A DNA stretch of 63,994 nucleotides, the filler included, from Jimgerdemannia flammicorona (Eukaryota): the NCBI GenBank assembly GCA_003990765.1. It is 3 parts of 3 records of this genome, joined end to end, with 100 filler letters (N's around TTAATTAATTAA, not from the genome) between each part and the next. Parts side by side here need not be neighbours in the genome. Positions count along the whole stretch, not along the records: positions 42,750 to 63,994 come from RBNJ01001497.1; 2 more parts are not named here. One strand, given 5' to 3'. The notes under the pieces are model-generated. The model did not search any database. It saw only the letters and a list, made by a program, of their open reading frames with translations, and was not told the DNA's origin. Shown here piece by piece: positions 21,280-63,832 of this stretch. Position 1 is the first letter of the stretch; each line of letters opens with the position of its first letter. Both the position numbers and the translations under genes were made by a program.

Positions 21280-21379
21280 NNNNNNNNNNNNNNNNNNNNN
21301 NNNNNNNNNNNNNNNNNNNNNNNTTAATTAATTAANNNNNNNNNNNNNNNNNNNNNNNNNNNNNNNNNNNNNNNNNNNN
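21280..21379. other. Assembly gap with artificial six-frame-stop linker
   Basis: N-run containing TTAATTAATTAA at 21324-21335. Confidence 0.97.
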
Positions 21380-23560: not shown

Positions 23561-26500
23561 TCCCCTCTCAACAACTTCTCCCATATCCCTATCTGTCGCC
23601 CCTCCTCAAAAACAAAGAGCCAATGTCCGGCCAACCCCACCCACACTGCCATAACCCACCCTACAGTAATCCACCTATTGCAAACACCTCCCACCAGTCT
23701 AGATTCCAAATCTTCCCAGCGACCTCTCTCTCCATCTGGTCCCCTTTCAACCCCTAGTCGGACCCCTATAGCTATCCAAAAGTCCCCCAAAACCTCACAC
23801 TCTCCCAGCCAGTGTTCCGGCATTTGTACAAAACCCCCAGCTTGCCCTATATAATAACACTCCTCACAATCCAGCTGACCACCATCCACCAGATGCCCAG
23901 AATGGAAATTCAACATAACATTCCTCCACAACATTCATCACTACACTATCCAGAACTTGGGAGGAAGCCACCACTGTATCTCAGCACTCCAGGACCAGAT
24001 TCCTGCCCAGTCCCACTCCTCACCAATCCTCACTGCCTGCCAACTACTTGGCCAAAGATTCTGGCCAATTCACCGCTGACACTCCACTCCATCCCCAATA
24101 TCAAACTCAGCGAGTAGAACTCCCCCTAGAAGTAGACAGTCCCACCTCCACATTGCTGGACCCCAGACCACCTCCCCCTCATCGCCACACCAGTGCAGGC
24201 CTATCCGATGTGCTCCATCTATCACTCTCCACCAGAAGCCCTTATACCGTAGCCGTTGACTTCCATTCAGACCCACCAAAGAGAGTAGATCCCCTGAGGA
24301 CCCCCGGGGGGAGACTCTCATCTCCCACACCTTCTGCATCAGTGGGACCCAATCTCCACCCTGTAGATCAACAGCTCTTCTCAACCACAAAGCTCTCAGG
24401 CAGTGTAATCGCTTAGGGAAGTCAACAAGGCCCAGGCCTCCCCTAAGCACTGGCTCCACAAGGGTATCCCAACTGATCTGGGCCCTTCTACCTGCCCAAA
24501 CCCAATCCCTAGCCAGTTTCATCAGCCTCTTCACCACCCAAGCTGGAAAGTCCAAGTGATATGCCACATACCACAGCTTGGGAAACCAGTAAACATTCAG
24601 TATCGCCACCCGCCCCACCAGGGAGATGTGATGACCCCCCCAACTTTTTGGAGCCTCTCCCCAAATGTCCACCCTCCTCTCCCACCATATCCGTGGCAGA
24701 ACTGATCCATATACAGAGAGAAATATACCGAGATACCACACCACCTCTCCTGTGGGGACAATTGTTCCAATGATGTCCCCTCCAACTAATCCATTCCCCA
24801 ACACCATCATCTCACACTTATGCCAGTTGAGCCTCACTCCAGAGTGTGCCTCATACCATTCCACCATTCCCTGAAGAGCCTCGACATCTGCTACTGATCT
24901 AAGTCCAACTACCATTTCATCTGCAAAGACCCCCACCTTCCACTCCACGTCATATACAGAGAGCCCAGCCACCTTCCTATGGATCCTATCCAACAAAGGT
25001 TCCAGGGAGAGGGTGTAAAGGATAGGAGACAGTGGATCTCCTTGAGGGACTCCTCTCCCCAAGGGAAATGCCAAACTCCTGTGACCATTACACATCAGTG
25101 CTACTCTACTCCCTTCCAACAAACTCAACATAGAGGCCCAAAACTGTGGCAGAACACCAATTCTGTCCAGCACCTTGCCTAGCCAAACTCACCGAACACG
25201 GTCATAGGTCTTCTTCTGGTCCAGAAAAACCAGCCTACCATCCAGTCCGCAGGCTCGGGCTCCTTCAATAATGCTATGCACCCAGGCAGTTCTATCTCGG
25301 ATTAGTCTACCTCCTACAAAGCCCCGCTGCTCCTCTCCCAGCACCTGCTGAGCAACCTTCTGTAGTCTCGCAACAATCACCTTAGTTACCAGCTTCCGAT
25401 CCATATCCAGAAGCATGATTGGCCTCCAGTTCTTCCAATCCTCATGCCTGCCCTTGTCTTTGTACAATAGAGCCACGAGCCCTAAGTCCTGCTCTCCAAC
25501 CCACATGCCATGCAGAATAACATAGTCACAGAGGGCAGCCATCTCTCCCAGCACCCCAGGGACACTTGCCATCTTCTTCCAGAAGTCCCACAGTAACCCA
25601 TCCTCCCCTGGCGCTGTCCCAAGCTTAGTAGCTGCCAGGACCCCCTGAATCTCCTCCTCCTGGACTGGTAAGATCAGGTCACCCAGTCCCTCCACCTGCG
25701 GTGGCTCCCACTCCTCCAATGTGTCGCCAATTGCCTTAGTATCAGCACCCCCTTCTTCCTCACTCCACAGACCCTGCCATTTCTCCTTCAATACCCCCAG
25801 GATCTGCTGCATGCCATACACCAATTCTCCCTCAGCATCAAAGACCCCATCCCACCGATGTCTCACCCTCCTGGTATTGAGGAGCCTAGATAAGTTCCTA
25901 GTAGGCTGCTCTCCCTCCTCAAGCCCCTGCCACCTTATCCTGGCAGCCATTCCTCACATATGCATTTCCTCCTCCTCTTATAACACCTGTTGCAGTTCCA
26001 CAACCTCCAATTTCGCCCTCACTAATCTTCAATCCTCCACCTCATCAGACATAAGCAAATCAGCCCACTCTAACTGCAATCTCTTCAGCCTATTTGAAGC
26101 ACACCATACCCGCCTCCTCCTCTGTCTCCCTGCCTCTCTACCAGCTTCTCCCCAATATACCCTCACAGCCTCCTTCAACCTCATCCAACGGACACCCACA
26201 GACAAACCCTCCGGCCTCCAGAGAGGAACCTTCGCCTGGATGTCCTCCACCCAACAGTCCCACAACCTCTTCTCTGTCAGCAGGGAGGAGTTAAGGTGCC
26301 AATGTCTGGGTCCATCTCCACTCCCCCCAAACTGCCCCTGCCCATACAGTCCCCAGTGATCAGACCATGGGCACCACACTACCTCCAAAGTCTTCCAGAC
26401 ATCAGCATCCCAACATTCAGCAGTCAGAACCCAGTCAATCCTTGTCCCTAAGCCATTCACCCAGTGTGTGTAGACCCTGGTATCACCCCACCGTGTTTGG

Positions 26501-29183
26501 CCCATATCCCCTAAGGAGCGAAGGTTTTCCACCTCCTCCCATACCTCCAATCCACCACTCCTTCCACCTGCATTCCTCCCTCCATCAGTTCTATCCAGTC
26601 GCCCATCTCAAACCATGTTAAAATCACCACCAAGAATATCGACCCCTTCCTCCAAGAGGATGCCCTCCTCCAGCTGCTTCTTAATCCATACAATTCTTTC
26701 TCCCCTAACCGCTGGGCAGTAACAAGAGCCCACCCTTACCAATTCCCACCCTGGCTAGTGCCATTCACCCCAGACCAAGTGATCCCCCCAGCTCCTGATA
26801 CCCCCCAAATCTCCTCTACCCTTCTTCACCAGAATCGTCACTTTTCCAAACTAAGTAGTAGCCCTACCCCATTCTCTAGTCCACTCTACCCTATCCTTCT
26901 CATCCTCACACTGTACATCCTGCAGTAAAAAGAGATCAGCCTCCAATCCCTTTAGCCAAGTAAAAATGTTCTTATGCCACCCAGATCCCCGAAGGCCATT
27001 CACATTGAGAGAGAAAATATTAGTTGTGCTGTTCATAAGGAATATTGTTAAAGATCAAACTTCTCCTCTACAAATCCACACTCAAGTCCTCCTGCGCCAA
27101 ATCCAAGATGCGTTCTGCAGCCAGTTCCCTCTTCTCAGCTTCCAGTGCCTCCAACCCACCCAGAAGTTCAACCATTGCCCCATCCTCTTTCTCCTGAAAG
27201 TCCTCACAATACTCCCCACAGGCCTCCTGCCAGAACTGCAAACCATGGCGTTCTGCCCAACAGTAGGCAGCCTGCTCCCCAGCAACAACCACCAGCTCTG
27301 CCTTCCTCACCTCATCCACCTCATATCCCTCTTCTTCTAGTAAGATTACAAGAATCTCCACCTTCAGCGCCTCCACCACTCCATCACCTCGCAGAATCCA
27401 TGCCCAGTGCTCATCAGGCATGACCCTTAGATCCACTTCCCCCAACACCTCAGCTGTAAGGTTATCCATCACCTTGCTTATCCACAGCAGATTCCCAACC
27501 TCCTTCCCTCCAGGGGTCCCCGGCTGCCCTGCATCCAGCATTGTAGTATCAGCACCTACACTGGCATCCTCATTCCACTCCTTCTCTGGGACATCCACCA
27601 GCTCGTCCTCACCAACCGCCACCACCTGGCCCCCTTTCGCCACATCTGGGATCCCAAAGGTAACTCACTGTGCCCCCTGCATCGGTACATCCTCTGCCAC
27701 CCCTCTCCACCCCACTGGTCCCCTTCTGACAAGTTGGGGGGGGGTGCTATCCAACTCCTCCTCCCAAACTTCGAAAGTACCATCGGCATAGGGATCCTTG
27801 CCCAGCACCTTTGCAGCCTATTCTACTGTCACCACTGCCTCCTTTCCACCTTCGCTAGCCCATACACTGGCTTTGATGCCTCCAGACTCCTCAGCCCCCT
27901 CTACCTTCCTCTTCTCCCCTCCTGTCATACTTGCCAAGAGCTCCCTCTGCCTCAAGCACCCCTGGGCCCACTCCCACTGCCTCTTATCAGTGTGGATATG
28001 CTTCCCCTCTACAATCTCCAGGTGTGTTGACTCCTCAAAGAGCTTCCAGGCCTTTGCCCACCATTCCACCACTCCACTCATCTCCTCCAATGCTTCTAAC
28101 AAGTCCTCCTCCTCCTCCTCACTCCCCTTCACCCTTGATACCTTACAAATAAAAGCCCCCCACATAAACACTGAGGGCCAGTCACCTGTCTTCTCTGTGG
28201 CCTCCCTCCCTACCAGCCGAATCCTGACATCAACATCACCTGTCCTAATCATTGTCCCCTCCCACACCTGGAAGCCAATATCCACCACATCACCATACTC
28301 CACCATCACCTCCTCTACCCTCCTCCTCATCTCCTCCTTCATCACCGTGGGCACCCCCTTCACCAGCATCTGAACCACCCTGGGGTCCCACCTCAAACAG
28401 CGCACTATGGGGACCACTACCTCCCCAACTACCACTCCAGACTTCAGGGCCTCGTCCAGTAGACCTGCCTCCTCAAAGCCCACCTCAATCCCCTCCAGGC
28501 CCTTCAAGAATTTCACCGATGCCACCCTAGCCACCTGCTTCAAGATAAGCCCCAGGACCATCCTCGCCATCACCGCCAAGCCATGGAAGCACAAGGTAGC
28601 TATGAACTCCAAAATCGACTTCTTGAGCAATGGGGCCACTGCCAGTCCCATTACACCATCTGCCAGGTCCCCCTTCCCCATTGGGAACCCCTGCCCCCCC
28701 TGGCCATCAGCCGTCACATCTCCTTTTTTTTCCTGATTCACTGTCACACCACCATCAGCAGTCCCGCCACTACCCCCAGCAGTTACTCCACTTCCACCCC
28801 CTCCCACTGATGAAGGCCCAGCTCCCCCAGCATTCCCAGCCTTCTTCTTCCTCTTCCTGCCTGACTGTCCACCATGCTCTCCCATTGGCCAACCTCCTGT
28901 CCTCAGTGTATCCACAAAGCTCCTTCCCTGCTGCCCTCCAGCCCCCCCACCAGTGCCGCTTCCACTGCCTGAGCTGCCCTACCCACTGGGGCCACCAAAA
29001 GACCCCATCCCCAGTCCATACCCTCTCCCGACATACTGCCAGTCGAAGGCCCCAGGTCCACCTGACTTAGTACACGTGCTGGCTTACTTGCTGGTTGACA
29101 TCTCCTTAGTATCTTTCTCCAATAAACGATATGAAAGTGTGTTGGAAAGTGTGTGTAATGTGAATTATAGCAGAGAGAGATGA
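23560..29183 (-). mobile_element. LINE copy 4: 5' UTR, ORF1 (~29103-27068) and ORF2 (27036-~23560), last ~250 nt missing
   Basis: ORF1 RRM-like EYGDVVDIGFQVWEGTMIRTGDVDVRI; EN MNSTTNIFSLNVNGL, LLQDV, RIDW, WSDHW; RT GVPQGDPLSP and FADE; CEEC...EHWLGEC. Confidence 0.93.
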
Positions 29184-31519
29184 TGTCCTGGCCATCCAGA
29201 CTGCCTCACCTCCCCACTCCTTTGTCCATTCCAGTCTATCCAAGTCATCCTCACACCTGACATCCTGCAAGAGGAAGAGATCAGCCTCCAATCTCTTCAG
29301 CCAAGTAAAAATGTTCTTATGTCAATAAGTGCCCTGTAACCCATTCATGTTCAAAGAAAAAATGTTGGTTGTACTATTCATAGTGAAGAATGGTGTGTTA
29401 TCAAGCTTTCTCTACTGCTCCATGTTCATCTCCTCCTGCACCAAGTCCAGATTATGTTCCACGGTCACCACCTCCTCTTCAGCCCTCTGAGCCTCCAGTC
29501 CAGCCAACAGCTCATTCATCTCCCCATCTGCCTTCTCCTCAAATTCCTCGCAGTACTCCAGGCAGGCTTCCTGCCAGAGCTGCAGTCCATGACGCTTAGT
29601 CCAGCAGTATTCAGCCCTCTCTCCTGCGACTCCCACCATCTCTGCCTCCCGCTCCTTATCTACCTCATAGCCCTCCTCCTCCAGATACACTGCAAGAATT
29701 TCCGCCTTCAATGCCATCACCACCCCCTCCCCCTGCAGGATCCTTGCCCAATGCTCATTGCTCATTACCCTCAAATCCACCTCTCCCAGCTCCTCAGCCA
29801 CCAGGTTGTTCATCATCCTGCACATCCAAAGTAGGTTCCCCACCTCCTTTCCTCCAGGGGTCGCTGGCCTCCCACCATCCAGCATTGTGGTGTCAGCCCC
29901 AGCACTTGCAGCCTTGTCCCACTCCTCTGGTACATCCACCAGTTCCTCCTCACTGACCGCCACCACTTGTCCCCCTTTTGCTGTCTCCAGAACTCCAAAT
30001 TGCACTCGCTGGGCCCCCCACATCGGCACATCCTCCATCACCCTGCTTCAGGAAGCTGGGCCATGCCTGATAAGGAGAGTAGGGGTAGGGGAGTCCTCCC
30101 ATGTCTCATCCCAAACCTCTAGCATACCATCTACATATGGGTCCTTGCCAGTTGCCTCCCTGTTCTTGCCAGTCCCCTTCCCAGCACTCCCACTTCCCTC
30201 GCCTGCCCAGACACTTGCTTTGGCACCCCCCATGTCCACCATCCTGCTCATATCCTTCTGAGGTCCACCCTTCATCTTCACCAGCAGTTCCCTCTGTCTC
30301 CTTCGTCCCTGATCTCATTCCCACTGCTCCTTGCTTACTCGAATCCTCTTCCCATCCATCACCTCTAAGTACATCGCCTCCTCAAAGGCCCTCCAAGCCT
30401 TTGCCTGCCATTCCTCTGCACCGCTCAACTCTTCCAGTGCTTCCAATAGGTCCTCTTCCTCCTCCTCACTCTCCTTCACCCTCATCACCTTGCACATGAT
30501 CGTCCTCCAGACCATACCGGAAGGCCAGTCCCTTGCCTTCCTGGTGGCCTCCTTTCCTGCCAGCTGAATCCTCACATCCACATCTCTAGTCCTGAGCGAG
30601 GTCCCCTCCCAGACCCTGAATCCAATATCCACCACCTCTCCATACTCTGCCATGACCTCCTCAACTCTCTTCCTTATCTCCATCGCCATCACTGTATGCA
30701 CCCCTTTCACCAGCAGTTGGACCACTCTGGGGTCCCATTTCAGGCATTGTGCCATTGGAACACACACCTCCCCAACTATCAATCCAACCTTCAACACTTC
30801 CTTCAAAGGCTCAGCCTCCTCAAAGCCCACTTCCACTCCCTCCAGTCCCTTCAAAAACTTTATGGATGCCGCTCCAGCCACCTGCTTAGCAATTAGCCCC
30901 AGTATTATTTTCACCATCACTGCTAGGCCCCGGAAGCACAGTGTCACTGCAAACACTAAGATCGATTTCTTGAGTAACAGTGCCACCACTAGGCCCATCA
31001 CACTATCTGCCAAATCTCCTTGTCTCCCAGACCCCAGTCACTCAGCTGCACCATCCACAGTCACATCTGGATTTTTTTCCAGATTAGCAGTCCCATCGCC
31101 ATCAGCTGTCACACCCCCCCCAGCCACTATACCTTCAGCCCCACTGCCCCCTCGGCCAAGGGCTACTCCCCCATGTACTGTCGCCTTCTCCGTTTTCTTG
31201 CCTTTCCTCAACCAATCCTCCAGTCCCATCATCTGCCTTCTCCCCTTCACCATCTCAGCAAAGCTCGCCCTCCCAGATCCCTGTCCTCCACTACTGCCTC
31301 CTTCCCTACCATGTCCACCTGCCAGCAGCCCCCTCATACCTCCCCCCAGGCCAGGGCCTCTCCCCACATGCTGCCAGTTGAACGTGCCTGGGCCACCCTG
31401 CCCAGTACATACCTCAGATTGCCTGTCAGTCACCATGTTGCTAGTCTCTTTTCTCCAAAAACAATGTTGTAGGTGCTTTTCAAAAGTTGTGTAACCTGAG
31501 AGGTACCGGAGAGAGATGC
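29184..31519 (-). mobile_element. LINE copy 5: 5' UTR, ORF1 (31436-29412) and first ~65 codons of ORF2, interrupted by copy 4
   Basis: ORF1 fragments 31038-31436, 30315-31013, 29412-30041; ORF2 starts at 29381 and runs ...LLQDVRCEDD...AVWMART straight into the copy-4 5' UTR. Confidence 0.92.
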
Positions 31520-34500
31520 ACCATTTCTGCTAGACACTTCTTGTTTGGGAACCTCCTGTTCAGGGGTTTCTTTTTCCTCAGATAATTCTTGACCTCAGAT
31601 TGCTTGTACTTCTGCAGCTTTGGCTGCAGGTATTTCTGGAACATATCTACACTTTTTCTTCTTCCTTCTGTACTCAGGGCAAGCTATACCAGATGAATTC
31701 CTTATCCCAATGATCTTGGAGGAGTGCTCAGGACACTTGTGTCTCTTGAGACAGATAGGGCATCCTTTGGTTTCTCCTGCAATGGCTCTGATGGTAATGG
31801 GGATGGTGTTCTTGGCCCACACATTGTCTTCTGGCCTGTCATCCACCAGATTGATTCAGGGATTGAGTCTGGGATTATTTCCATCTTTGGATTATTCTTT
31901 CTCTTCTATAGTAGACTCTTCACTGCTGGCATATTTCTCCTGAATAGTGACCTTCTTCTTCTTCTTTAATTGCTCATAGCTGGTTACCTTGACTCTAAAC
32001 TTCTTGTCTCAGTAGTCAAACTTGAGTACTTGTTGATCAATATCAATAATTGTATTTATTTCCTTCATCCAGTTGGTGCCAAGAATCATATCATAGGTGA
32101 TAGCTTAGTAACATAAACCTTCAGGATGGAGAACTGAATGTGTCCAAGGGAGATAGTGATATTTCATGCTTCTTCAAAGGGTTGAGTTCAGGCTCTATCT
32201 GTTACTATGATGCTGAGATTGGATAGTCCATCAATGGGCCATTAGAGGGTGTCCAAGAATCATGTGGCAATGACACAGACAGCTACTCCTGTGTCTATGA
32301 GAATTTTCACTTTTTGTACTCCAATATCTTAATGCAGATAAGTGCTAACATGTCTTTCTGCAGCTTGAATAGAGATAGGAGCTGGTTCTTGCTGTGGAAT
32401 TGGAACTCAGCCAGTACTAGACCTGGTGGTTCTCAGCAATTTGTTTTGGACTCCAGCTGGTTTTAGTTGCAGAAACTACAGGAGAGAGACATCTATCTTG
32501 GCTTCTTGAATCTTTTGCCAGGCTTTATTGTAGATGTCTCTAGGTATGGTCTTTGAGGTGTACTTCTTATTGGGCTTTGAGACAGCAGGTTCCCATTCTT
32601 CTTATTCCATTTCCTCATCTTCTAGGGGCAGCTCATTTATCTCAGGGACAAAAGGTGAAGAAGTCTGGAGAGGTGTTTCTACTTGCTCCTCTTCATGTTC
32701 TTTGTCTTTTTCTTGGATTCTTCTGCTGATGTTCCTGGATGGCCTTCCTATAGGTCTCTTCCTTTTCTCTGCTAAGTAGACTGTCTTTCATATAGTAACT
32801 TTGGCTGGATATAAGTTTAGGTCACTGTAGTCTTTACTGTTACTTGCTTTTTCAAAATCTTTGACAGAATGGACTTCAGTCTTCTTGTACTGAGTTTCAT
32901 TTCTTTGGTTTGGTGGTTCTGAATCCCTTCAGTCACTTCTTTTGTTGTCACATTCATTGGCATAGTATCTGAATTATCTACAGTGGAAGCATTGAACTTG
33001 GGCTCTGTCTCAGATAAGATATCTTCTTTCTTCTTGCTGGTAGTTCCTGTTATCTCTTATGGACAACCTTGGTTCCTCTGTGGTGGATATCCTCTGTTAT
33101 CTTGATAACCTTTATTTTTGCATATGGTGAGTTTTTCAATCTGTCCAACCAATTGGTCCAGCTTGGAACTGAGGTCTTGGATTTCACTTCTATCCTTCTT
33201 TCTTTCTTTGGGTGGCCTTCTTTCTTCAGATCTCTACTGTCCTTGGAGGAGTCCTTGTAGGGCTTTGACCAGGATGTCTTCTTTATTATCCTTCTTATCA
33301 TAATCACTCCAGGTGGTTTCTTGTCTAATATCAAAGAGTTCTTGGGCTATATATACTTGTTCTACAGACCTTCTAATACCTAGGGTGTGGACATGCTGGG
33401 AAATGTTCAGAGGAATTCCATTTATGAAGGTCATAGGACCTATGATGTCTTGGTTGATAGCATTGAACCTGGCTGCATTCATTCTCTTCTAGATTCTTGT
33501 GAAGAATGCTCTGGGTGATTCTTTAAGATTTATCTTCATCTCTATGATGGATTCTTGAGCCTTATGGTGGGTTTCATTTTCTGCATATTTTTTGATAAGC
33601 CAGTAGACCATGGCTACATATTCCAGCTCATAGGATGCTGCTGCTTGTATTTCTGCTGCTAGGTCTGAGTGTGGATCATTTGCTGTTTGGTGGAAAATTC
33701 CTCTAGCTGGTTCTCTGAGCTGGGCCTTGTAGATGGCAATTTTCCTTTTATTTGGGAGATTCCTTAGGGCTACAATTCCCTCAATTCCATCAAAGAATTC
33801 TCTAGAATCTTCTTCTGGACACCCTGCAAAGGTTGGCAATGGAGAGGATATTTTGTCATCACTTTCTTCTGGTTCTAGTTCTGGTTCTGATTCGGATTCT
33901 GACTCTGATTCTTCCTGAGCTATAGCTGGGAGTGGGAGTGATTGGGTATCTTGAGGATGGTATTGCAGTCCTTGGTTGAAGTGGAATAAGCCTGGGTATT
34001 TTTGAAGGAGCTGCTTCCAATTCAGCAAAGGCTGGTGATAATGATTCAATGGGTGAGATTGGTGGAACTGCTATGGGGTATCTGCTGCAGGATTTCGGGC
34101 TTGAGCAATGAGATCTTCTGGTTCTTGGGCCAGTTCTTCAAAGTCTCCAACAGGGCCACCTATGTTGTCTGGTTGATTTGGTTGAGGATTTTGGGCTGTA
34201 CTGATTTCTGGTTGAGATCTCTCTGAAGCTGAGTAATTGGCAGCTCTTGAGGTGATTACTTCTCTTTCTGTCCAAATGCTGGTGATGACTGGTTCTCCTA
34301 TAGTGGTAGATATTGATATTGTATCAAATATATCCAGTTTGACTGTGGGTTCTTGTGAGCTGAAAAGTCATGTCAATTTTGAAAGCTTCCCAGTTGAGTC
34401 TCCAAATGTAATGTGCCCGGCTCAATGGAGGCAAATTACAAGGTTGTGGGTTGATGTAGTTTGGCTTGAGCCCCTAGTTACTTTGTCAAAAAGCAACAAA

Positions 34501-35522
34501 ATGTTCTAAGATTCCTGAGATTCTTATTGGTGTTTAGTGGTATAATAGTCAAAGCTGGATATCTGCAAGTGATACTGGTGATTTCCTTATTGGGACAGGT
34601 TCTTGGGTGTAGCAGCGATTTGTGTGTATGGCAGACTGGCAATTTGGTGGTTCTCCTTATACGATTTCTGTGTGACGATCTCTGTATAGTACAACGAATT
34701 CCTTAAGTATGCGATTTCTGGTGGGATGATCTTGGTGATATTCCTTATGTGAATTTGGCGGATGACTCAATTTGGCATGGATTCTCCTGATTTGGCTCAC
34801 TGGGAATAGTATTGGCGGCGGATTCTTCTTACTGGAAACGGATAACTCGGATGCCACAGATTCTTCCTAAATCAGCATGGTTCTGGGAAATAACTCAGAT
34901 AACTCAATGTTGTGGATTCTTCCTGAATTGGCTCTTCTGGGAATAATAACTCAGATTCTTTGACAAGTTATATCAAAGACTGGCTTCATTTGTGCAAATG
35001 AATCGCTGCAAAGTTGCATCAAGAGACTGACTTGTGGCAAGAATGGCAGGCTCTCTGGGAATACAGGTTTCTCTTCAAAAGGTGGTGAAGTACTTCCTTG
35101 AACTTGGCAGCAAACTTCAGGCTTATCTGGCAAGTGAACCAAGACTTTGTATCAGAAAGTGGACCAGAGTGAGAATAAGGGGACCAATGTTCAATCTTTA
35201 GAGACTTCTTTGGTTTGTGCTTTAATTTGGACTGAGGTTTATTCACTCTTGTCTCTGGGTATTTTATATGTGGTTGCTATCTGGTTGCTATGTAGCTAAC
35301 TATAGATTTGGTATTTGTGGCAAGTTGTGCAAGTTCTGTACAAGTGTGCAGGTCTTGCACAGGTGTGCAGATCTTGTACAGATATACAGGTCTTGCACAG
35401 GTGTACAGGTCCTGCACAGGTATACCTTATCTGGTAGTCTGGCTATTTATACAGTTTTCTGTAATAATGGTTGCTGTGTTACTATGCTATGTGTTTCACA
35501 TTATCTGGCTAAGTTGCTAATT
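31520..35522 (-). mobile_element. Gypsy family A copy 2: 5' LTR (34407-~35522), gag, protease and part of the spacer; cut by the LINE nest
   Basis: Colinear with 8740-13140; gag LPTFAGCPEEDSREFFDGIEG; CFHC..F.YYANEC knuckle at ~32945-32995; IDTG protease at ~32280-32305. Confidence 0.9.
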
Positions 35523-40071: not shown

Positions 40072-40271
40072 AAGTTCACTTACATACAATTCCTTACAAA
40101 GCAATCTAAGAGATAATAATATAGTTTAAAGATAAGAAGTTTGAGGACTATAAGATCTTAGGAAGGTACTTTAATAAGAACTTGCTTATAATAAACTTGA
40201 GTTAGTCTAAGAGATATATATCTTAAAGAGAATCTGATATATTTGAAGAACTCAGCAACCACTATGTGAAA
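40072..40271 (+). repeat. Gypsy B LTR 3'-end remnant
   Basis: Matches 48500-48697; followed by ATAT. Confidence 0.85.
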
Positions 40272-42649: not shown

Positions 42650-42749
42650 NNNNNNNNNNNNNNNNNNNNNNNNNNNNNNNNNNNNNNNNNNNNTTAATTA
42701 ATTAANNNNNNNNNNNNNNNNNNNNNNNNNNNNNNNNNNNNNNNNNNNN
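42650..42749. other. Assembly gap with artificial six-frame-stop linker
   Basis: N-run containing TTAATTAATTAA at 42694-42705. Confidence 0.97.
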
Positions 42750-42751
42750 AG

Positions 42752-43054
42752 TAGTTTTAGTTATTGGAATTTATATTTAGCTTTATATCTTAGCAACCAT
42801 TGAATTATATTTTGTATAAATACCCCTCTTATTTCCTCTGAAATAAAGTCAGTTCCTCTCAGTGCAATACACACACTTCCTTGCAAGCAATCTAAGAGAT
42901 AACAAGACAGTTAAAGATAAGAAGTTTGAGGACTATAAGACCTTGGGAAGGCACTCCAATAAGAACTTGCTTATAACAAACTTGAGTTAGTCTAAGAGAT
43001 ACACCTTGAAGAGAATCTGGTATATTTGAAGGACTCAGCGACCACTACATGACA
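42752..43054 (+). repeat. Gypsy B LTR 3' part
   Basis: Matches 48400-48697 and 55600-55902; ends CATGACA followed by ATAT. Confidence 0.9.
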
Positions 43055-47118: not shown

Positions 47119-48697
47119 TGTAATAGTGACTCCAGAATGATGATATCAGCATAGGAGACAGCCTTTCCTTGCAAGCTACCAGATTGAAGTACAAGAAAGA
47201 TCATATAGCATACAAGATGAGCAATGATGACCAACTGTGAGTCATTGTGACCACAGTATGGATATCTTGAGGAATATAAAAGAAGGATCAAAGAACTACA
47301 GTAGTTACAACTAATAAGACCCACTAATCTCAAAATAGCTCAAAGACTTACCACAAACAAAATACCTATTGCTCACCAAACCTCAAGATCAAGAAACCAC
47401 TAAGGCATCTCAGTTGAAGAAAGGATGTTCCAAGATATCAGAAGAGCCAAGGACCTACTCAAGAAGGACTCCTAGAATCAACCTGGGTACTGGTGACCCT
47501 TATCATTATATTCTCTACTATTGTGAAATGGAAACAAGAATTACCATTACTACTGAATGCCTCCAAATGTGGCAGGAGTATGAAATAGGAAACCTCCTCT
47601 GCCAGGAGTTCCCACAGGCTAGCACTCAAGAGCTATAAGATGCCACTTCTATGAATATACATGAAACAAGGATAGCTAAGAAGATCCATCAGATCTTCAG
47701 GCATACACTATGATCAATCCCCAACTTGGAGTATATTAGAGTCTCAGATTTCAGAGATCTGTCAGCCAGCTATATTAATGCACTAGAAGCCAGGGTAGCT
47801 ACAGAAACCCAGTCCACTATCACTCTCGACAATGATGAAGTAGAAGACTTCTGGTATTCCATCCTCCAGGACAACCCAGATCAATTTTTACAAGGATTGA
47901 TCTCAGTATTCCAAGGCCCAAGCATCCAGATTAGACCTCTTCAAGACCCCACATTTGTTCTCTATTTTGTAGAAGAGAACCTTATAGACTGAAGAGCCCC
48001 AGATCTCCTTGTTCCTACTGCCACTGCCACCAAACATGATGATGTCATCAGCAATAACATCATCCCATATGACATACACAAGATGCACAACATACACAAA
48101 GCATGTGAAATATGCAAAATATACAACCTATGTGACAATGATGAATTTGCAGACCTCATCTCCTTCAAAGATATCCTGATCTCTAATAAGGATGAAGTCC
48201 CTATGGTCTTGAACATTCTGCTCTAAAAAAAAGTCCTTTGGTTACACTGAATAATACCAGCACTGGTATTCTGATATGATACCAAATAATGCCAGCACTG
48301 GCATTCTGAGGTAATACTGAATTATACCAGCATCCTAAACCTATACAATCATCAGTACCAACCTTGGAACTTAGCAGTTTTTCCTGTCCTGGCATTTTAT
48401 TTTAGTTATTGGAATTTATATTTAGCTTTATATCTTAACAACTATTGAATTATATTTTGTATAAATACCCCTCTTATTTCCTTTAAAATAAAGTCAGTTC
48501 TGGTTCACTTACATACAATTTCTTGCAAGCAATCTAAGAGATAACAAGACAGTTTAAAGATAAGAAGTTTGAGGACTATAAGATCTTGGGAAGGCACTCC
48601 AATAAGAACTTGCTTATAACAAACTTGAGTTAGTCTAAGAGATACACCTTGAAGAGAATCTGACATATTTGAAGGACTCGGTGACTACTACATGACT
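47119..48697 (+). repeat. Gypsy B 5' LTR (long U3, TATA-like box at ~48459)
   Basis: Direct repeat of 54366-55902. Confidence 0.92.
47369..48226 (+). pseudogene. Relic ORF inside the Gypsy B LTR (U3), unknown product
   Basis: ~285 codons in one frame with only three internal stops (TAA 47636, TGA 47711, TGA 47990); the TAA is CAA in the 3' LTR. Confidence 0.6.
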
Positions 48698-50902
48698 ACT
48701 TAGTGCCTATTGGCTGGTGATTCTAGACAATCCCTCACTTTCAAGCTGAAAAATGAATAATCACCACAACAACTACTCTGACTACAAGAGTTACCCCTGC
48801 AAGAATTCAAGACAAGATAGAAATATGTTCCCCCACATTTTTTAGATATACTACTAAAGAGTCAATCCTGACCTTCATTGAAGACTTTGAACAATTCACC
48901 ACTGTATAAGCCCTTGGTGTAGATGCACAATTGGCTCTTCTATCAGTCAGCCTCAGAGGACCTGCCAGGGATAAGTTCAATGTAGCCACTATTACTAATA
49001 ATGGTGCAGCCAAACTTGCCAACATGAAGGCCTTTCTCAGAACAATATACTATACTGAAGAGATCAAGCAAGCTCTCAAGGAACAACTCAATACTATCTG
49101 CCAGAGACTCAGTGAAGATCCCAACTCATTCTATATCTGAATCTGTTACCAGATTGTCTTGGCTGACTATGATGACTACCTCAAGGAACAAACAGTGGAT
49201 TCAACCTTCCTCAAAGGAGTTTACTCTGAAATTGTCCTAGCAATCTGGTCTACCACAGCTGCACTGACCCTTGATCAGAAAGTGGTCTTTGCATAGAGAT
49301 ATTGGACTGCCAGACATCCTGCCAAACACTTAATGAAGAAAATAACCAGCATCAAGATGGAGCCATCAAAGCCAACTAGTATTATACCTGCCATAGTTGT
49401 AAATAGACAACCATCCCCACCTACCCCCAAGACAACCAAAGCTGACCCAGTGGAGGAACTTGCCAAGCAGTTCACTGAGATGACTGCATACCTTAGTGAT
49501 GTTGTTATAGAAGTCCAAAGTACCAACAGAAGACCAGTGCAGAGATTTGCAGCTGCTACAGAAGAATGTAATATCATATACTTCAGATGTGGAGAAGAAG
49601 GCCACTATGCAAAGAATTGCATGACCAAAATAAGACATACAGCCCAACTAAGCAATGTTTACAAAACCAGAGAACAAACCAATACAGTAGTTATCAAGGA
49701 GATTGGTGATACTGATGATGAAGAATACTATAAAGAGCTTGAATTCTACCCTGCTACTGAAGGTACCAGAACCTGGTCCAAGCCCTATGATAAGAAGAGC
49801 AACAGCAAGCCAGTTGGGAGACCAAAGAAGACCCCAGCTGTCACTATTCAAAGTAAGACTCAACCTGAGGAGATTGATCAAGATATGGAGTTAGATAAAG
49901 CTATCTACCAAATCATTGAAGGTACTACTCCAGTCTCAGGAGAAAGTGAAAGCAAGAAGGAATAGAAGCTGCACAAGACCAAGATCCACCAGTATGATAT
50001 CTATAAGGACCTCAAGGAACAGAAGGTCAATGCTACTTTTGGACAACTAGCTGAAGTCTCTGCCTTCAGACAGCAGTTGAGAGTAAGACTTGCAACTACT
50101 GCTAAGAATCAAGAGTACAATATTGTAGAAGCTCACAATGCACAGAAAGAATCAGAAGACTTAGGTGAAGAATCTGAAGACCAGTGCAAGATATCAGCCT
50201 ATACCCCATATCAGATCGAAGATTGTATCTTTGATACCATTATTGATACTAGTGCTGGAGGATGTCTCATGAGTAAGAAGACAATTGACCACCTAGGCTG
50301 GGACATTGAAGAGTCTACCAAGATAGTCTATATTACAGCAGATGATATATGAGCTATCCCTCTTGGCAAAATCTGAGAAGTCCCCATCAAGATAGAAGAG
50401 CTACCATCCCAGTAGATGTGATTATTACAAGCACCACCAACTATGACATCCTCATTGGCAACCAATGGCTTCACAAGGCCAAGGCCATCATTGACCTCAA
50501 TGCCCAGAAGATGCAGATCAACTATAGAGGAAGAAAGGTATGAGTCTCTATCAATGTCTACAAAAGAGTCCTACCAGACATGGAGAAAGGAGATGAAGAG
50601 GACACAGAAGTCTTTATGCACTCAGTGAACAAGAACAAGAACAAGACACTCAAGCTCACAGATGAGCAGTGGTACAACAAGATTATTGATAGCTATGCCC
50701 CTCAAGGAAGATGTCCCCATGGTCTAGAATGTACTGCTCTAAACACCTGAATGACTGCTGGTCCTGTATCAGTGAAGTCAGAAAAATCTGCCAACAGAAA
50801 CATGAGTAAGAAGCCACTGAAGCAAAAAGGAAAGCTGAAGAAGATGACCAGCCCCCTGAGCTTTAAGTCAACAGTAATGATGAGGAGGAACAAGAATCAG
50901 AC

Positions 50903-51319
50903 ATCACCCTCAAGGTCAAGAAGTTTCACTCTAAAGCCAAGATTCCAGAATACAAGACTAAAGGAGCCATAGGAATAGACCTTGCCAGCATTCAAGATGC
51001 TACCCTCAAACCACAGACCACTACCCTACTTGGCACCAGAATTGGAGTCAAGCTACCAGAGAACCATACCAGAATTATCAAGACCAGAAGCAGTCTGGCC
51101 AAAAGTGAAATCTCAGTTGAAGGAGGAGTAATTGACTCTGATTACACTGGTGAGATCTTTCTCATAATCAGAAATTACAACTCCACTACCCCATTCAAAA
51201 TCAAGAAACATGACAGGATTGGCCAGATGCTGATCTACAAAATCAAAAAGCCCAAGATCACTGAAGCCATCAAACTCATCAAGACTAAGAGAGAAGAACA
51301 AGGCTTTGGATCTACTGGA
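50903..51319 (+). CDS. dUTPase domain of Gypsy B pol, stop-free and in frame with RT
   Basis: All five trimeric dUTPase motifs: GAIGIDL, TRSSLA, GGVIDSDYTGEI, DRIGQM, REEQGFGSTG. Confidence 0.93.
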
Positions 51320-54300
51320 AGAGGAGCCTATGCCACCACCAAGATTACCAAACTTGAGTACAAGAATGACAGAGATCAGAATAAGCACACATATACCATT
51401 GGAGAAAACTTTCCCCTGGAAGAACAATTCCTTAAGATCCTGTACCAGAATGAAGGAGTACTTGCTACAGACTTCAGAGATATCCACAATCAAGAACCCA
51501 AGTACTACCATGAAGTTGACACTGGTGATACCAAGCCCATCTATCAAAAAGCCAGATCTATGCCACCTGCCTACAGAGAATGGTTGCAAGCAGAACTTAA
51601 GGAAATGGAAGAAGTCAGAATCATCAAGCAAGCTATCAGTCCCTGGGCTTCACCTATTGTCCTTGCCCTGAAGAAAGGAAGCAAGCTTGGAGAGTTTGTA
51701 CTAAGACTCTGCATTGACTACAGGAAGCTCAATACAATTACTAAGAAGAATAGGCAGCCCTTGCCAAATATTCAAGAAATCCTTATCACTCTTGGAAGCA
51801 AAGCCAAATACTACACCACCTTGAATCTGTTCTCAGGCTTCCATCAGATTGGTCTCACTCAAGATGCCAGTGAGAAATCAGCCTTCATCACACCTGATAC
51901 CACCTATATCTACCTGCAAATACTATTTGAAATGTGCAAATGATGAACAGAGTCTTTAGTAACAAGATTGGAAAATGGCTCTTTGTCTATGTTGATGATA
52001 TAATCATCTTCAGCAACACTGCACAGAAATATGTCAATCATATACAGCTAGCCCTCAAGAAGCTCAAGGAGTATAGCCTCTACATCAAGCCCAAGAAATA
52101 TAAGTTTGCAGCTCAGGAAATTGCCTACCTAGGATACCTCATCAACCAGACTGGAATCTACACAGACCCCATAAATATTGAGGCTGTTGTAGTCTACCCA
52201 AGACCCAGAATAGCTACAGAAGTCCATGCCTTCCTTGGACTGACCAGCTACTATAGAAGATTCATCAAAGGATACTCCAACATTGCAGCATCTATCTATG
52301 AGCTACTGAAGAAGGAAACCAAATTTGAATAGACTAAGAAATGCCAAAAAACCTTCAATGAACTCAAAACCAGATTGATCCAAGCACCTATCCTCAGAAG
52401 ACCAGATTGGAGTCTAGAATTTATCCTGCAGATAGATGTAAGTGCTATAGAACTTAGAGTAGTCCTAGTTCAGAAGAAAGATAGACATGAATATATCATC
52501 TCCTATATAAGCCAAGGTACCTATAGAGTAGAACAGAACTATGAGTCATGCAAGCTTGAATGCTTAGCAGTAGTTTGGGCAGTAGACAAGTTCTACTACT
52601 ACCTAGCTGGAAAACACTTCACTGTTCAAACAGACCATTCTGCTCCTGGCTATTCCACACTCTGAACCCCAAAGGAATATATGCCAGATAGATCTACAGG
52701 CTGCAAGAGTATGACTGTACTATCAAGCACTGCTCAGGAAGAACCAACACCAATACTGATGTACTCTCAAAGATATCCCAAAACACTCCAATCAAGACTA
52801 TTCAACATGAATAAGGAGCTATACTATGGATTAATCAGCTATCTTGGGCAGCAGAAGATGCCTAATCATCTTGAACTCTAGACAATCACTATCATCAACT
52901 GGACTTGGAAACAGTTTGAACTAGACAACACTATACTCAGAAAAGAAGAAAAACTAGTAATACCTGAATACAAGAAGTATCAAGTAATAAAGGAAGTATA
53001 CAAGTAAGGATACTTAGGAGGAACCAATACATACAACAAGGCAAGAAGAACTATATAGTGGCTCAAAATAGAAGAAGATCTGTACCAATTTGTCAAAGAG
53101 TGTGACAAGTGCCAAAAACAGAAATAAGATCAGCAAGACCAGATATCCGGGTCATCAAGAATTGAACCTATCCCCTTCCACCACATCACAATGAATATCA
53201 TTGGACCACTACCAGTAACACTATCAGGAAACTGCTATATTATAGTTATTGTAAACCTCTTTATGAAATAGATAGAAGTAGGAGTATTACAAGAAGCTAA
53301 TGCCCTCTCTATAGTCAACTTCCTGTACTGAGAAATCATATACCACTATAAGACACCAAAGCAAATTACAACAGATCATGGCACTAAATTTATCAATGGA
53401 TTCCATGAGATAATATATCAGAAATACAAGATTCAGTATATCAAGACTACCACATACCACCCTCAAGGAAATGGACAGATAGAGAGAACCAACAAGACCC
53501 TCAAGAACATTCTGGTGAAGATCTCAGAGATATATGAGAATTGGGATAACTATACCAACTGCCCTCTCTGTCCTATAAGATATATAGTCACAGAGTACAC
53601 ACTTTACCCCAAGAGAACTGCTCTTCAGAGATGAAGATTCTGATGGAACCTCAGCCACAAATCTAGACCTAACTTGGAGATGGGTTGATGCAGAAATCCA
53701 GAGACTACACCAAATCAGAAAGAAGGCTGAAGATTATATCATCAAGTCACAAGTACTGATAAGGAAAAATGCAGAAAAGAATCACAAGACCCTAGAACCC
53801 ATCCAAATTGGAGAAAAGGTCCTACTGTATTGAAATATGATAGAAGTCTCATAATCATAAAAACTGGAGCCCAAATGGAAAGAACTCTTCTATATGTAAG
53901 ATTTCAAGAGAACTACCTTCTAACTTAGAAAAATCTTAGAGACCATACTGCCTACTATAGTACATAGGAACAGACTTAAGAAGTACTATGAACCTATATT
54001 AGAGAAGTAAAATGTAATGACCATCTGCGAGGTTCTAGTCTATGAATCATAACAGCATATCCCATGACCAGCAGACTATCTGTCTGGACCATTCTCTAAA
54101 GGATACAGTACCAGCAATTACTCATCCATAAGACTTTCAAAGCCAGAGGAGTTTGAACTATCAACTGATTAATCAAGATCAGAATCAGGCCCTTGCTCTA
54201 TATGAAGGGAGCAACTCTTTACCATCACACCAAAATATAAAGAGAAGATGCTAGCCTATAAATATCCCTTTTCAACCTCTTGCCAGAGGTTATAGGATCA

Positions 54301-54365
54301 GCAAATTTTTCAGCACTGGACTAACGAATAAGGATGCTTGAGAAGATCTTTATTCAGGAGGAAGA

Positions 54366-55902
54366 TATAATGGTAACCCCAGAATGATGACATCAGTATA
54401 AGAGACAGCCTTTTCTTGTAAGCCACTAGATCAAAGTACAAGAAAGATCATATGGCATATAAGATGAGCAATAATGACCAACTGTGAGTCATTGTAACCA
54501 TAGTATCAGTATCTTGAGGAATATAAAAGAAGAATTAAGGAACTATAATAGTTACAACCAACAAGACCCACCAATCCCAAAATAGCTCAAAGACTTACCA
54601 CAAATAAAATGCCTGCTGCTCACTAAACCTCAAGGTCAAGGAACCACCAAGGTACCTTAGTTGAAGAAAGGATGTTCCAAGACATCAGAAGAGCCATGAG
54701 GATCTGCTCAAGAAGGACTCCTAGTATCAACCTGGGTACTGGTGACCCTTATTATTATATTATCTACTGCTATGAAATAGAAACAAGGATCACTATTGCT
54801 ACTAAATGGCTCCAAATGTGGTAGGAGTACCAAATAGAAAACCTCCTCTGCCAGGAGTTCCCACAGACCAGTACTCAAGAGCTACAAGATATCACTCCTA
54901 TGGATATATATGAAACAAGGATAGCTAAGATCTATCAGATCTTCAGGTATATACCATAGTCACTCCCAACTTAGAGTATGTTAGAGTCTCAGATTTCAGA
55001 GATCTGTCAGCCCACACTAGAAGCCAGGGTGGCTATAGAAGCTCAGTCTACTATCACTCTTGACAGTGACAAAATAAAAGACTTCTGGCATCTCATCCTC
55101 CAGGACAACTCAGATCAATTTCTATAAGGATTGATCTCAGTATTCTAAGGCCCAAGCATTTAGATTAGATCTCTCCAAGACCCCACATTTGTTCTCTATT
55201 TTATAGAAGAGCCTTGTTCCTACCACTACTGCTGCCAAATGTGATGATGTCATCAGTGATGATGTCATCCCATGTGACATATGTAAAACATATGATATAT
55301 GCAAAGCACATGATATATGCAAAATGCATGACCTATGTGACAATGATGAATTTGCAGACCTCATCTCCTTTGAAGACATTCTGATCTCTGATGAGAATGA
55401 AGCCCCTATGGTCTTGAACATTTTGCTCTAAAAAAAAGTCCTTTGGTTATACTGAATAATGCCAGCACTGACATTCTGATGTGACATCAAATAATGCCAG
55501 CACCAGTATTCTAAGGTAACACTGAATTATACTAGCATCTTGAACCTGTATAACCATCAGTGCTGACCCTAGAACTTAGCAGTTTTTCCTGTTCTGGTAT
55601 TTTATTTTAGTTATTGGAATTTATATTTAGCTTTATATCTTAGCAACTATTGAATTATATTTTGTATAAATACTCCTCTTATTTCCTTTGAAACAAAGTC
55701 AGTTCTGGTTCACTTACATACAATCTCTTGCAAGCAATCTAAGAGATAACAAGATAGTTTAAAGATAAGAAGTTTGAGAACTATAAGACCTTAGGAAGGT
55801 ACTCCAATCAGAACTTGCTTATAACAAACTTAAGTTAGTCTAAGAGATATACCTTGAAGAGAATCTGGTATATTTGAAGGACTTAGTAACTACTACATAA
55901 CA
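54366..55902 (+). repeat. Gypsy B 3' LTR
   Basis: Direct repeat of 47119-48697, preceded by PPT, ends ...ACATAACA. Confidence 0.92.
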
Positions 55903-58048
55903 ATATATATTTGATACTCTTTACATTTTTTATTTCAAAATTTCAGAACTTTTAATACATTATATAACTTTTAGATAGTAAATAAATACTTATAAATATC
56001 AATAATTATTTTTATAATTAAGTTCTTATATATATATAATCTAAAAGACTCTAGTATATATATAAGTTAGTCTTATTTTAATCTTAAAAAGAAAATAAAT
56101 CTCAAAATATCTCTAAACTCTATCTATTTATAATAATAGAGTTATTAACTAAATTTGATCTTTATTAAAAAGAGAACTTAAATTAATCATATACTATATT
56201 TAAGTAAACCTCTAGCTTTAAGGATTAAGTATATATAAGAATAGCTTTAAAGATTGAGCTTTTAGAAAATCAGACTTAGTAAAGATATTATTTTTTAAAT
56301 ATTCTCCTATATATATCTAATTAAGAATATTATAAGTAAAATATTAGATTTTTGAATACTTTCAGATATTATTAGAATTTATATCTTAATTTTATAATAA
56401 TCTTATAAAATTGGAAATATTTTTAATTTAGTATTATTAAATTTACTAATTTTTTAATATTTAGATAATATATAAATATGACAATTTCAATATGAATATA
56501 CTAATTTCTAATTTTATTAAAATAATAATATTGTAATGTACCTAGCTCAATGGAGGCAAATTACAAGATTAGTGATTGATATAGTTTGGCTTGAGCCCAC
56601 AGTTACTTTATTAAAAGTAACAAAATGTTTTAAGATTCCTAAGATCCTTAGTGGTGTTTAGTAGTACAATAGTCAAAACTGGATATCTGCAAGTGATTTG
56701 TGTGTTGATTTCCTAATTGGGACAGTTCTCTGGGTATAGCAGAATGGGTTTTCTTCTTAGATCAACTAGAAATTGATGGAGTTTTGTGTATAGTATGATG
56801 ATCTCTGTATAGTGCGATGATCTCTGTATATGATAGTCTGTCAATTTAGCAGTTCTTCTTCTTGGGTGGTAGGTGATCTCTGTGTGATAATCTTGTATAG
56901 CACAACCAGGTTCCTTATATAAGATAATCTGGCAATTTGGCAGATAACTCAATTTGACACAGATCTCCTTAAATCAGTGGGCTTCTAGGAATAATAACTC
57001 AGATGGTGTAGATAATTCAAATAACTGGGAATAATACTGATGGCAGATTCTTCACTAGGAACAAATAAATAACTCAGCTATTGCAGATTCTTTCTGAATT
57101 AGCAGCTTCAACTGAGAATGTGATAGATAACTTAGAAATAGCAGATGATATGGATTCTTTCTAAATCAGTAGCTCTCTGGGAATACTACTCAGGTGGTGC
57201 AGATTCTTCCTGAATTAGTGGCTTCAACTGAGAAATAACTTGGATTCTTGGCAAGTTATATCTAGACTGGCTTTGTTTATACAAATTGATCACTACAAAG
57301 TTATGTCAAGGGACTGGCTTATGGTAAGAATAGGCAGGCTCTCTGGGAATGTGATGAATAACTCAAAGGGTAGTAAAGTTCTCCTTGAACTTGGTAACAA
57401 ACTCGGATTCTTCAGGCTTAGTCTAGCAAGCATACCAATAGCACAGCTTATTCCTTAAGCAGTAGATTCTTCAGACTTAGTCTGATAAGCATACTAATAG
57501 TATAGCTTATTTCTTAAGTAGCAGGTTCTTCAGGCTTAGTCTGGTAAGCATATCAATAATTCCAAAGATAGTGAAGTTCTTCACTCAAACTTGGGGGCAA
57601 AATCTTTAAGCTTTGTATTGGAAAGTAGACTGAAGTAGAAAGGAGACCAATGCTCAATCTTTAGAGGCTTCTTTGGTATTTGTATTTCAGACTGAGGTTT
57701 ATTCACTCTTATCTCTGGGGTAATTTATATAGTTGTAGTTACTTTCTGGTTGCTATGTGGCTAACTATAGATTGCTATCTATGGCAAGTATGCAGGTCTT
57801 GTATAGGTGTATAGATCTTGCACAGGTGTGTAGGTCTTACATGGGTGTATAGATCTTACACAGGTATATAGGCCTTGCACAGGTATACCTTATCTGGTAG
57901 TCTGGCTATTTATATAGCTTTCTGTAGCAATGGCTGCTGACTACTATACTATGTGTTCATGTTATCTAGCTAAGTTATAATTTGGGTGGTACATTCTGGT
58001 TTGTCACATCAGTCCCCACTAATAAATGGTCTGTCCTCAGACTATCCT

Positions 58049-61850: not shown

Positions 61851-63832
61851 TGCTGAGTTTGGACTGACCTAAGACTGAAGCTCCACTAGCAGGGAGCCTC
61901 TAAGCTCTAAGGTTGAGGTGTGGCCATCTGGCTCCAGTAGAGGGGTCTCAGAGATAGTTGATTCCTCTCTTTTCTGTAGGGTCTAAGGCTTCCATGAAGT
62001 TGGTGGCATCTTCTATCTATCCTTGGTGGGTTGTATATCTGATGAGAGCTTGGATGTCTTCTCCTAAATCAAAGATCTTGAGGATCCTTCTTTCTGGCTT
62101 CTTGGTCTGGCAATTTTGGATCTGGCTTCTATTGTCTCCTCTCTTCAAGGTATGGATTGCAACATCATGACTGAGGTGAATCTTCTGGTGTCTGCAATCT
62201 TAGCAGTTTGGATGTCTTCTATGGTTATAATATTCCATTGCTTAGAAATAATGTTCCCAGTTGTTGATCTCTTATTATCTTGGGAATCAGTATCCATCTT
62301 GGTCATAAGTTGGTGGAAGGGTAGACAGGGGATAGACTTCTGTCTGGGTAAAGAAGTCTTGTCCTCTGAATTGGCTTTACAGCTTGGTGGTAACTTCTTG
62401 GAAGGTAGTTGACTGTGCAACTGTGTTCAGGGGTTCTGGTCTCTGGGGTCTCTGTCTCTTCTGTTGGTCTAATAAATAGCACTGATAGCAGTAGTCTTGG
62501 AGAGAGTAGAAGACCATTTAGTAGTGACATCTTCCTAGCTGAAAGGCCTTTTCTTAGTGAGTTTCTTTCTTGGAGATAATGGTGATTGTGCTGGGTCCTT
62601 CTTCTATATTCCAAGGGTCATTATTTTCAGATAGCATCCAGTGAGGGTCATCCCAGGGAATAAGTTCAGAGATCTCTTCTTCTTTAGATACTTCTTATCC
62701 AGGAACTTCTTGGTCAGAAGTTTCTTCTTCCTCAGATGATTCTTGTCCCCAAATTGCTTGTACTTCTGCAGCTTTGGCTATAGGTATTTCTGGAATATGT
62801 CTGAATTTCTTCTTCCTTTTTCTGCACTCTGGGCAGACTATGCCAGGTGAATTCCTTGTTCCAATAATTTTGGAAAATTCTCAGAGCACTTGTGTCTCAT
62901 GAGGCAGGTGGGGCATCCTTTGATTTCTCCTGCAATGACTCCAATAGTGATAGGGATGGTGTTCTTGGCCCATACATTATCTTCTGGTCTGTCATCCACT
63001 AGGTTAATTTGGGAATTGAGTCTGGGGTCATTTCCATCTTCAGATTCTTCCTCTTCTTCTGTGGTAGATTCTTCACTGCTGGCATATTCTTCTTGGATAG
63101 TGATCTTCTTCTTCTTCTTTAATTGCTCATAGCTGGTCACCTTAACTCTGTACTTCTTGCCTCAGTAGTCAAACTTGAGTACTTGTTGACTGATGTCAAC
63201 AACTGCTTTCATTTCCTTTATCCAGTTGGTGCCAAGAATCATGTCATAGGTGACAGCTTCAGTGACAATAGTTTTGGGAATAGAAAACTGAATGTGTCCT
63301 ATGGAAATAGTAATATTTTGTACTTCTCCAAGGGGTTGAGTTCGGGCTCCATCTGCTACTATGATACTGAGGTTGGATAGTCCATCAATGGGCCATTGGA
63401 GAGTGTCCAGGAATCATTTGGCAATGATACAGACAGCTGCTCCTATATCTATGAGGATTTTCACCTTTTGTCCTCCAATATCTCCATATAGATAAGTGCT
63501 GACATGTCTTTCAGCTGCTTGGACAGAGATGGAAACCAGTTCTTGCTGTGGGATTGGAACTTGGCCAGTGCTGGATCTGGTGGTTCTCAGCAGTTTGTTT
63601 TGGACTCCAGCTGGTATCAGTTATAGGAACTGCAGAAGGGGGACTTCCATCTTGGCCTTTTGAATCTTCTGCAAGGCTTTATTGTCGATGTCTCTAGGTA
63701 TGGTCTTTGGGGTGTACTTCTTTTTAGACTTTGAATAGCAGGCTCCCATTCTTCTTGTTCCATTTCTTCATCTTCTGGTGGTAGCTCATTTGTCTTAGAG
63801 ATAAAAGGTAAAGGAGTCCAGGAAGGTATTTC

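Follow-up and report, generated by a model that had tools for sequence, protein, structure and literature searches.

The usual description of an LTR retrotransposon is that of a gag-pol unit whose LTRs do not code for protein, and genes located in U3 are regarded as a hallmark of a few complex retroviruses. In the betaretrovirus MMTV, sag is a complete sense ORF of ~300 codons that lies in U3 upstream of the promoter elements and is present twice in the provirus; its product, Sag, is a membrane protein. Foamy viruses and lentiviruses also have genes running into U3, tas/bel and nef (HIV/SIV), which are 3′ accessory genes placed behind pol/env. In foamy viruses, Tas acts as a transactivator; part of it is acidic and activating, and it has an internal promoter of its own. 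Ty3/Gypsy retrotransposons possess lineage-specific extra genes as well, the additional ORFs (aORFs), whose function is regulatory or unknown. According to the accessible part of PMC7264820, plant aORFs, env-like or antisense, belong to the internal region, where they sit either ahead of gag or between pol and the 3′ LTR. The available portions of two other sources likewise describe an extra ORF in the internal region, brtn of Botrytis Boty/BcGypsy1 (preprint 10.1101/2021.04.13.439636) and CERV of C. elegans Cer1 (PMC10309623). Finally, PosPlaTy3-5 of Postia placenta carries a dUTPase between PR and RT (PMC2864245, accessible part); an LTR-borne ORF is not mentioned in that part of the paper, and its Figure 3 legend has an 'add. 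ORF' of unknown function in some fungal elements.

Here we describe a locus of Jimgerdemannia flammicorona (assembly GCA_003990765.1) that compares most directly with sag: a sense ORF of similar length, upstream of a promoter-like motif and present in both LTRs of a Gypsy element. The window, that is, the whole stretch of DNA analysed, comprises 63,994 nucleotides, filler included, in three joined parts, and the element lies in the part taken from RBNJ01001497.1 (positions 42,750 to 63,994). That this is a protein-coding ORF inside a Gypsy LTR, as the original prediction had it, is borne out: it is in sense orientation and upstream of a TATA/poly(A) pair, and has uninterrupted homologues of 215-342 aa. 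Both its coding nature and its location in the LTR are well supported.

A decayed Gypsy element and the reading frame in its LTRs

The element is a decayed Ty3/Gypsy retrotransposon on the plus strand, in which Pfam scans recognise gag, PR, dUTPase, RT, RNase H and IN. Its 5′ LTR (47119-48698, ~1580 nt, first letters TG) was delimited by BLAST and MAFFT against 54366-55903, with 86-88% identity; the latter interval is the 3′ LTR, placed by alignment and junctions, and its first letters are TA instead of TG. BLAST returns the pair as two direct repeats, 47121-47977 with 54368-55211 (86.3%) and 48007-48693 with 55212-55898 (87.8%), and 1345 of the 1536 aligned sites are identical. The decayed internal region between the LTRs (48699-54365, from Pfam scans and junctions) contains gag with a CCHC knuckle (zf-CCHC, 49297-49965), a weak match to an aspartic protease (gag-asp_proteas, about 50210-50400, E 0.0054), a dUTPase located between PR and RT (50933-51319, E 1.7e-27), RT (RVT_1, about 51700-52140), RNase H (RT_RNaseH_2, 52333-52665) and the zinc and core domains of the integrase (Integrase_H2C2 and rve, about 52960-53465), all on the plus strand. 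In this order, gag(CCHC)-PR-dUTPase-RT-RNase H-IN, the integrase comes after RT, as for Ty3/Gypsy (Metaviridae). A polypurine tract, a 10-nt purine run at 54356-54365 (plus strand), directly abuts the 3′ LTR, and a candidate primer site led by TGG is found ~20 nt past the 5′ LTR, the usual position being adjacent to it. Because both flanks of the element are AT repeats, the 4-5 nt target-site duplication with which they are compatible proves little.

Each LTR contains one copy of the ORF, on the same strand as gag-pol and entirely within the LTR, start included. In the 5′ LTR it extends from 47362 to 48226 (plus strand, about 288 codons, terminal TAA at 48224-48226), starts 243 nt into the LTR and stops 234 nt before a TATAAA at 48460, close to the ~230 nt first estimated. 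The original prediction gave frame 47369-48226 as about 285 codons with three stops; the count is 286 codons, with three internal stops and the terminal one. The second copy, in the 3′ LTR (54609-55431, plus strand), is more damaged and keeps its ATG. When nine proteins of the family described below were compared with the window by tblastn, the only matches were at 47362-48223 and 54609-55428.

Might this simply be a frame poor in stops by chance or base composition? Such frames abound where the window is GC-rich and strand-skewed. However, frame 47450-48223 has 3 stops in 258 codons, the other two plus-strand frames having 11 and 24 and the minus-strand frames 10, 12 and 25, and dinucleotide-preserving shuffles of the same interval contained 16.4 stops on average (sd 3.6, minimum 7), with three or fewer in none of 2000. 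The contention that stops are far fewer here than expected of non-coding DNA was therefore correct. Moreover, a scan for 200-codon stretches with at most three stops yielded just two further frames between 36 and 48 kb, where the window is AT-rich, and E values down to 1e-102 are obtained with homologues read in this frame. A non-gene origin is thus extremely improbable, and we consider it refuted by the homologue searches together with the shuffles.

Decayed elements crowd the whole window. GC-rich blocks (GC 0.45-0.57) stand out from AT-rich surroundings at 14000-19000 and 20000-31500, with GC skews of +0.39 to +0.57 and -0.15 to -0.53; RVT_1 matches occur at 17340-17816 (plus strand) and 24070-25953 (minus strand), and the blocks probably represent further retroelements, rich in stop-poor frames. 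Another repeat family, of at least 3 kb, is represented by three copies with 66-88% identity (8222-11929, 31531-34505 and 62162-63765), and a further repeat pair occupies 6363-7450 and 11630-12716. The gap linkers at 21280-21379 and 42650-42749 are identical, each made of 44 N, a 12-nt linker with stops in all frames and 44 N; the second has a 45-nt T run just before it and an LTR fragment right after it.

The copy of the ORF in the 5′ LTR is dead: transitions took its start codon and created four stops, and a 2-nt deletion shifts its frame. The start codon at 47362 reads ATA where the 3′ LTR has ATG and contigs of relatives carry G at 47364. The internal stops are at 47401, 47636, 47711 and 47990. 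It had been proposed that the three stops of the main frame could each be reverted to CAA or CGA, which is right for 47636, a Q in relatives; at 47711 and 47990 relatives have W, so that these two are TGG-type codons altered by G-to-A and not CGA. The suggestion that an upstream frame, 47225 to about 47475, might be the N-terminus stands from 47362 onwards, where this frame, interrupted by its own stop at 47401, joins the main one across the 2-nt deletion after 47449; positions 47225-47361 lie upstream of the conserved start and fall outside the protein. The 3′ LTR and relatives possess both of the deleted letters. Indeed, relatives' contigs from four public runs have an extra TG after 47449, as well as C at 47636 and G at 47713, and in run X5 the two letters are found in 342 of 351 depth units. 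The copy in the 3′ LTR retains the 2 nt and has more stops than the 5′ copy. The homologous sequence that had been noticed there was confirmed by alignment, with its gaps of 3, 1, 11 and 29 nt: the 3-nt indel, the 1-nt and 11-nt pair and the 29-nt deletion.

Transitions account for 183 of the 191 differences between the LTRs, and in 126 of them an A stands directly after the C that corresponds to T in the other copy; TpA has an observed/expected ratio of 0.89, which is no enrichment. CpG has virtually disappeared, with ratios of 0.12 over the whole window and 0.04 for the LTR. This decay may be due to deamination of methylated cytosine or to a process similar to RIP. At the protein level, the 5′ copy shares 186 residues with the relative P0003 and differs at 82, of which 38 would be restored to the residue of P0003 by a single T-to-C or A-to-G change and 8 by the opposite class; all four stops of the 5′ copy are of the kind restorable by T-to-C or A-to-G. 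The contigs of relatives from the four runs give the same picture, with T or A in the window where relatives have C or G far commoner than the reverse (in run X1, from window to relative, T>C and A>G number 99 and 62, C>T and G>A 57 and 32). The window copy is thus what transitions have left of an open gene. Between the two LTR copies, differences at codon positions 1, 2 and 3 number 50, 23 and 42 (p = 0.007), with no excess at the third position; this comparison is uninformative on selection because the LTRs of a dead element diverge neutrally after insertion.

A protein family related to the LTR-borne frame

When 5.8 billion proteins were searched through a word index, 363 candidates came up, five of which matched at E <= 0.01. 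The strongest match, P0002 (247 aa, E 8.6e-102), is 70% identical to the window copy, and the close uninterrupted relatives, P0002, P0003 and P0004 included, measure 215-271 aa and have 59-70% identity to it, these three having 62-70%. Residues 1-29 of P0003 align by tblastn with 47362-47448 at 79% identity and residues 31-271 with 47450-48223. A profile search of 1.84 billion representatives then found five proteins at E <= 0.001, including P0008, P0009 and P0010, and a further search with the distant members added found four (P0009-P0012), P0011 and P0012 being new. These distant relatives, P0008-P0012, have 175-342 aa and 29-46% identity to P0002.

In an alignment of ten members, with identities to P0002 from 80% down to 29%, several conserved blocks and the start are kept in all branches. 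All four homologues that reach the N-terminus (P0003, P0008, P0009 and P0011) begin with M-P..R, and two short hydrophobic motifs in the acidic tail are kept by the branches that reach the C-terminus, except that of P0010/P0011. Because the relatives share the start and these motifs, and because neutral DNA at 29-46% protein identity would long since have lost both frame and alignability, the LTR ORF belongs to a real protein family, which we take to have been kept by past purifying selection, the relatives being known here as protein sequences. Their intactness is partly a matter of ascertainment, since gene callers report open frames only. At the DNA level one element was examined; the relatives may likewise lie in LTRs. 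Searches for their DNA matched 282 stretches of metagenome contigs with a pattern search and 167 stretches of viral contigs, none of which was confirmed, and a degenerate DNA pattern had no match in metagenome contigs.

Contigs of relatives cover little of 47992-48243 at 80% likeness, which we read as a variable tail. Short repeats with a 9-nt period (48072-48126, plus strand) fall in this variable acidic C-terminal part, where the stretch is longer than in the homologues. The same repeats are seen in the 3′ LTR too, in that copy's own reading.

What, then, is the origin of this gene? One explanation is that an LTR of this lineage captured a piece of a cellular gene, a mere passenger that does nothing for the element. 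LTR retrotransposons are known to capture genes, with transduction-like cases in the accessible part of PMC7264820, and the distant relatives P0008-P0012 are protein matches without known genomic context. Nevertheless, the same part of that source has captures occurring in one or few copies, and here the part of the LTR that holds the ORF is covered by relatives' contigs in all four runs (1867, 399, 46 and 215 contigs). In addition, a complete ORF with conserved start and stop is retained across branches at about 28-46% identity, and no longer or fused form of the protein, such as a cellular gene might show, appeared among 8000 candidates, which is weak evidence. Capture of a host gene is for these reasons unlikely.

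We consider it probable that the stretch is a decayed copy of a real accessory gene that belongs to the LTR itself. Reverse transcription copies both LTRs from a single U3 template, and therefore the ORF was already in the LTR when this copy of the element was inserted. The two LTRs of the element, of ~1.58 kb, each have one sense ORF of about 270-290 codons.

Probable position in U3, possible expression and function

Downstream of the ORF the LTR carries several motifs relevant to its transcription. Between the stop codon and the TATA box there is a 35-nt tandem repeat in 2.5 copies, each with a short dyad (48246-48332, plus strand); the 3′ LTR has two copies (55455-55524), and relatives' contigs skip 49-102 nt at this place, so the copy number varies. 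These dyad repeats look like an enhancer. The TATAAA at 48460 and an AATAAA at 48487, 261 nt past the ORF stop (48460-48492 together, plus strand), would be the likely genomic promoter and poly(A) signal, and on these two motifs the U3/R border is likely near 48500. The probable R-U5 (48503-48698, plus strand) shows 90-93% identity with two LTR fragments of the window, 40074-40253 and 42755-43053. The first matches the LTR only from 48503 and is preceded by unrelated sequence devoid of the ORF part; the second matches only from 48400 and begins at the gap linker. In addition, one relative's contig joins unrelated sequence at 48457. These boundaries suggest that related LTRs swap U3 parts and have a short R-U5 in common.

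With its stop 234 nt upstream of the TATA/poly(A) pair, the ORF is most likely in U3, as judged from motifs and from the points at which other LTR fragments begin to match. A gene so placed would therefore follow pol and take up the 3′ end of the genomic RNA. A different arrangement is conceivable, in which the genomic RNA starts at an upstream TATA-like box and the ORF is the first cistron within a very long R. That box, TATAAAAG (47275-47282, plus strand), is a good match 80 nt before the start codon and is found in both LTRs. Yet such an R of 1.2 kb, containing a poly(A) signal, would terminate transcripts ahead of gag. The second TATAAA, followed by the AATAAA, speaks against it too, and so do the two fragments, which match only the last 180-300 nt of the LTR, as well as the junction at 48457, which fits a short R-U5 with an exchangeable U3. 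We regard a leader ORF of this type as distinctly unlikely.

Two routes of expression can be envisaged. In the first, TATAAAAG, a motif that may be a candidate promoter, would direct an LTR-internal mRNA of ~1.2 kb from the TATA at 47275 to the LTR poly(A) signal at 48487. In the second, the template for the protein would be an RNA of the 3′ LTR, either subgenomic or spliced. No run recorded as RNA contains the stretch, eight runs having small shares of it (0.06-0.17 of the sampled words), and no canonical intron-like joint was seen in relatives' contigs from the four public runs. Run X5 being RNA by presumption only, its uneven depth was set aside.

The protein has a basic N-terminus, a core predicted to be helical and a strongly acidic tail. 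Net charge is +4 to +8 across residues 1-60 in P0002 and P0003, and -6 to -11 per 30 residues in the tails of P0002, P0003 and P0011. No Pfam family was recognised, ATG5_HBR alone appearing in two of the ten members at E 0.09-0.1, below the cut-off; a profile search of the PDB returned no sequence at E <= 10, and in the ESM Atlas the best feature score was 0.83 and the best TM 0.33, which is chance level. AlphaFold2 models reached a mean pLDDT of 33.8 with five sequences and 43.2 with ten, too poor for fold comparison, and have helices over residues 26-128, none of them confident. Function is argued from composition, since neither a fold, nor a family, nor a solved relative was found. The original prediction had seen in the ORF a putative trans-activator or anti-silencing factor expressed from the 3′ LTR. 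On the basis of composition, we tentatively propose, as a possibility of fairly low probability, that the protein could be a nuclear regulator, for instance a transcriptional activator, or an RNA-handling factor acting on the LTR or RNA of its own element.

A more far-reaching version of this idea, rather doubtful at present, is that every LTR of the lineage, even a solo LTR, would be a complete small gene, with its own TATA (47275), an ORF of 270-290 codons and the LTR poly(A) signal. Its product would be a nuclear factor, basic at the N-terminus and provided with an acidic tail for activation, whose target would be the 35-nt dyad repeats just ahead of the genomic promoter. It would work either as a positive-feedback activator similar to Tas/Tax or as a counter-silencing factor, here in an element that is not a retrovirus.

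Comparison with known accessory genes

A literature search, with most subscription journals outside its scope, turned up no account of an LTR retrotransposon that has a protein gene entirely within its LTR. The term 'LTR ORF' refers mostly to MMTV in the literature searched, and PMC12037069 and a Blumeria preprint use it otherwise, as far as their accessible parts go; PMC11362648 is a match for the wording 'ORF in the U3'. Should an LTR-borne orphan protein be conserved as proposed, accessory regulation would have arisen in retrotransposons as well, and LTRs, solo LTRs included, would be possible sources of protein. That would give annotators grounds for leaving long LTRs unmasked rather than treating them as non-coding. 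Such a gene would also offer a compact system for understanding how a retroelement controls its own transcription or evades silencing.

How does the locus relate to the systems described so far? The element has its dUTPase in the same place as dUTPase-bearing fungal Gypsy elements such as PosPlaTy3-5 and Tmt1 of Tuber. Like the aORFs of plant elements, brtn and CERV, the ORF is an extra Ty3/Gypsy gene, and in contrast with them it starts 243 nt inside the LTR and not in the internal region. It would share with foamy virus tas/bel and HIV/SIV nef the character of a 3′ accessory gene reaching U3; those genes overlap U3 in part, whereas this one lies entirely in the LTR with its start codon. No sequence relation to Sag, Nef or Bel/Tas was detected with Pfam at E <= 1 (ATG5_HBR, at 0.09, excepted) or with the PDB at E <= 10. 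MMTV sag, whose arrangement is the most similar, thus differs in the sequence of its product, and other differences can be added: no segment of the ORF protein is hydrophobic enough for a membrane span (maximum 19-residue hydropathy 1.07), so it has no membrane anchor, the host is not a vertebrate and the element is without env. A U3-type accessory gene, here probably one that encodes an orphan protein, is a form of organisation known in retroviruses and, apparently, undescribed in such retrotransposons.
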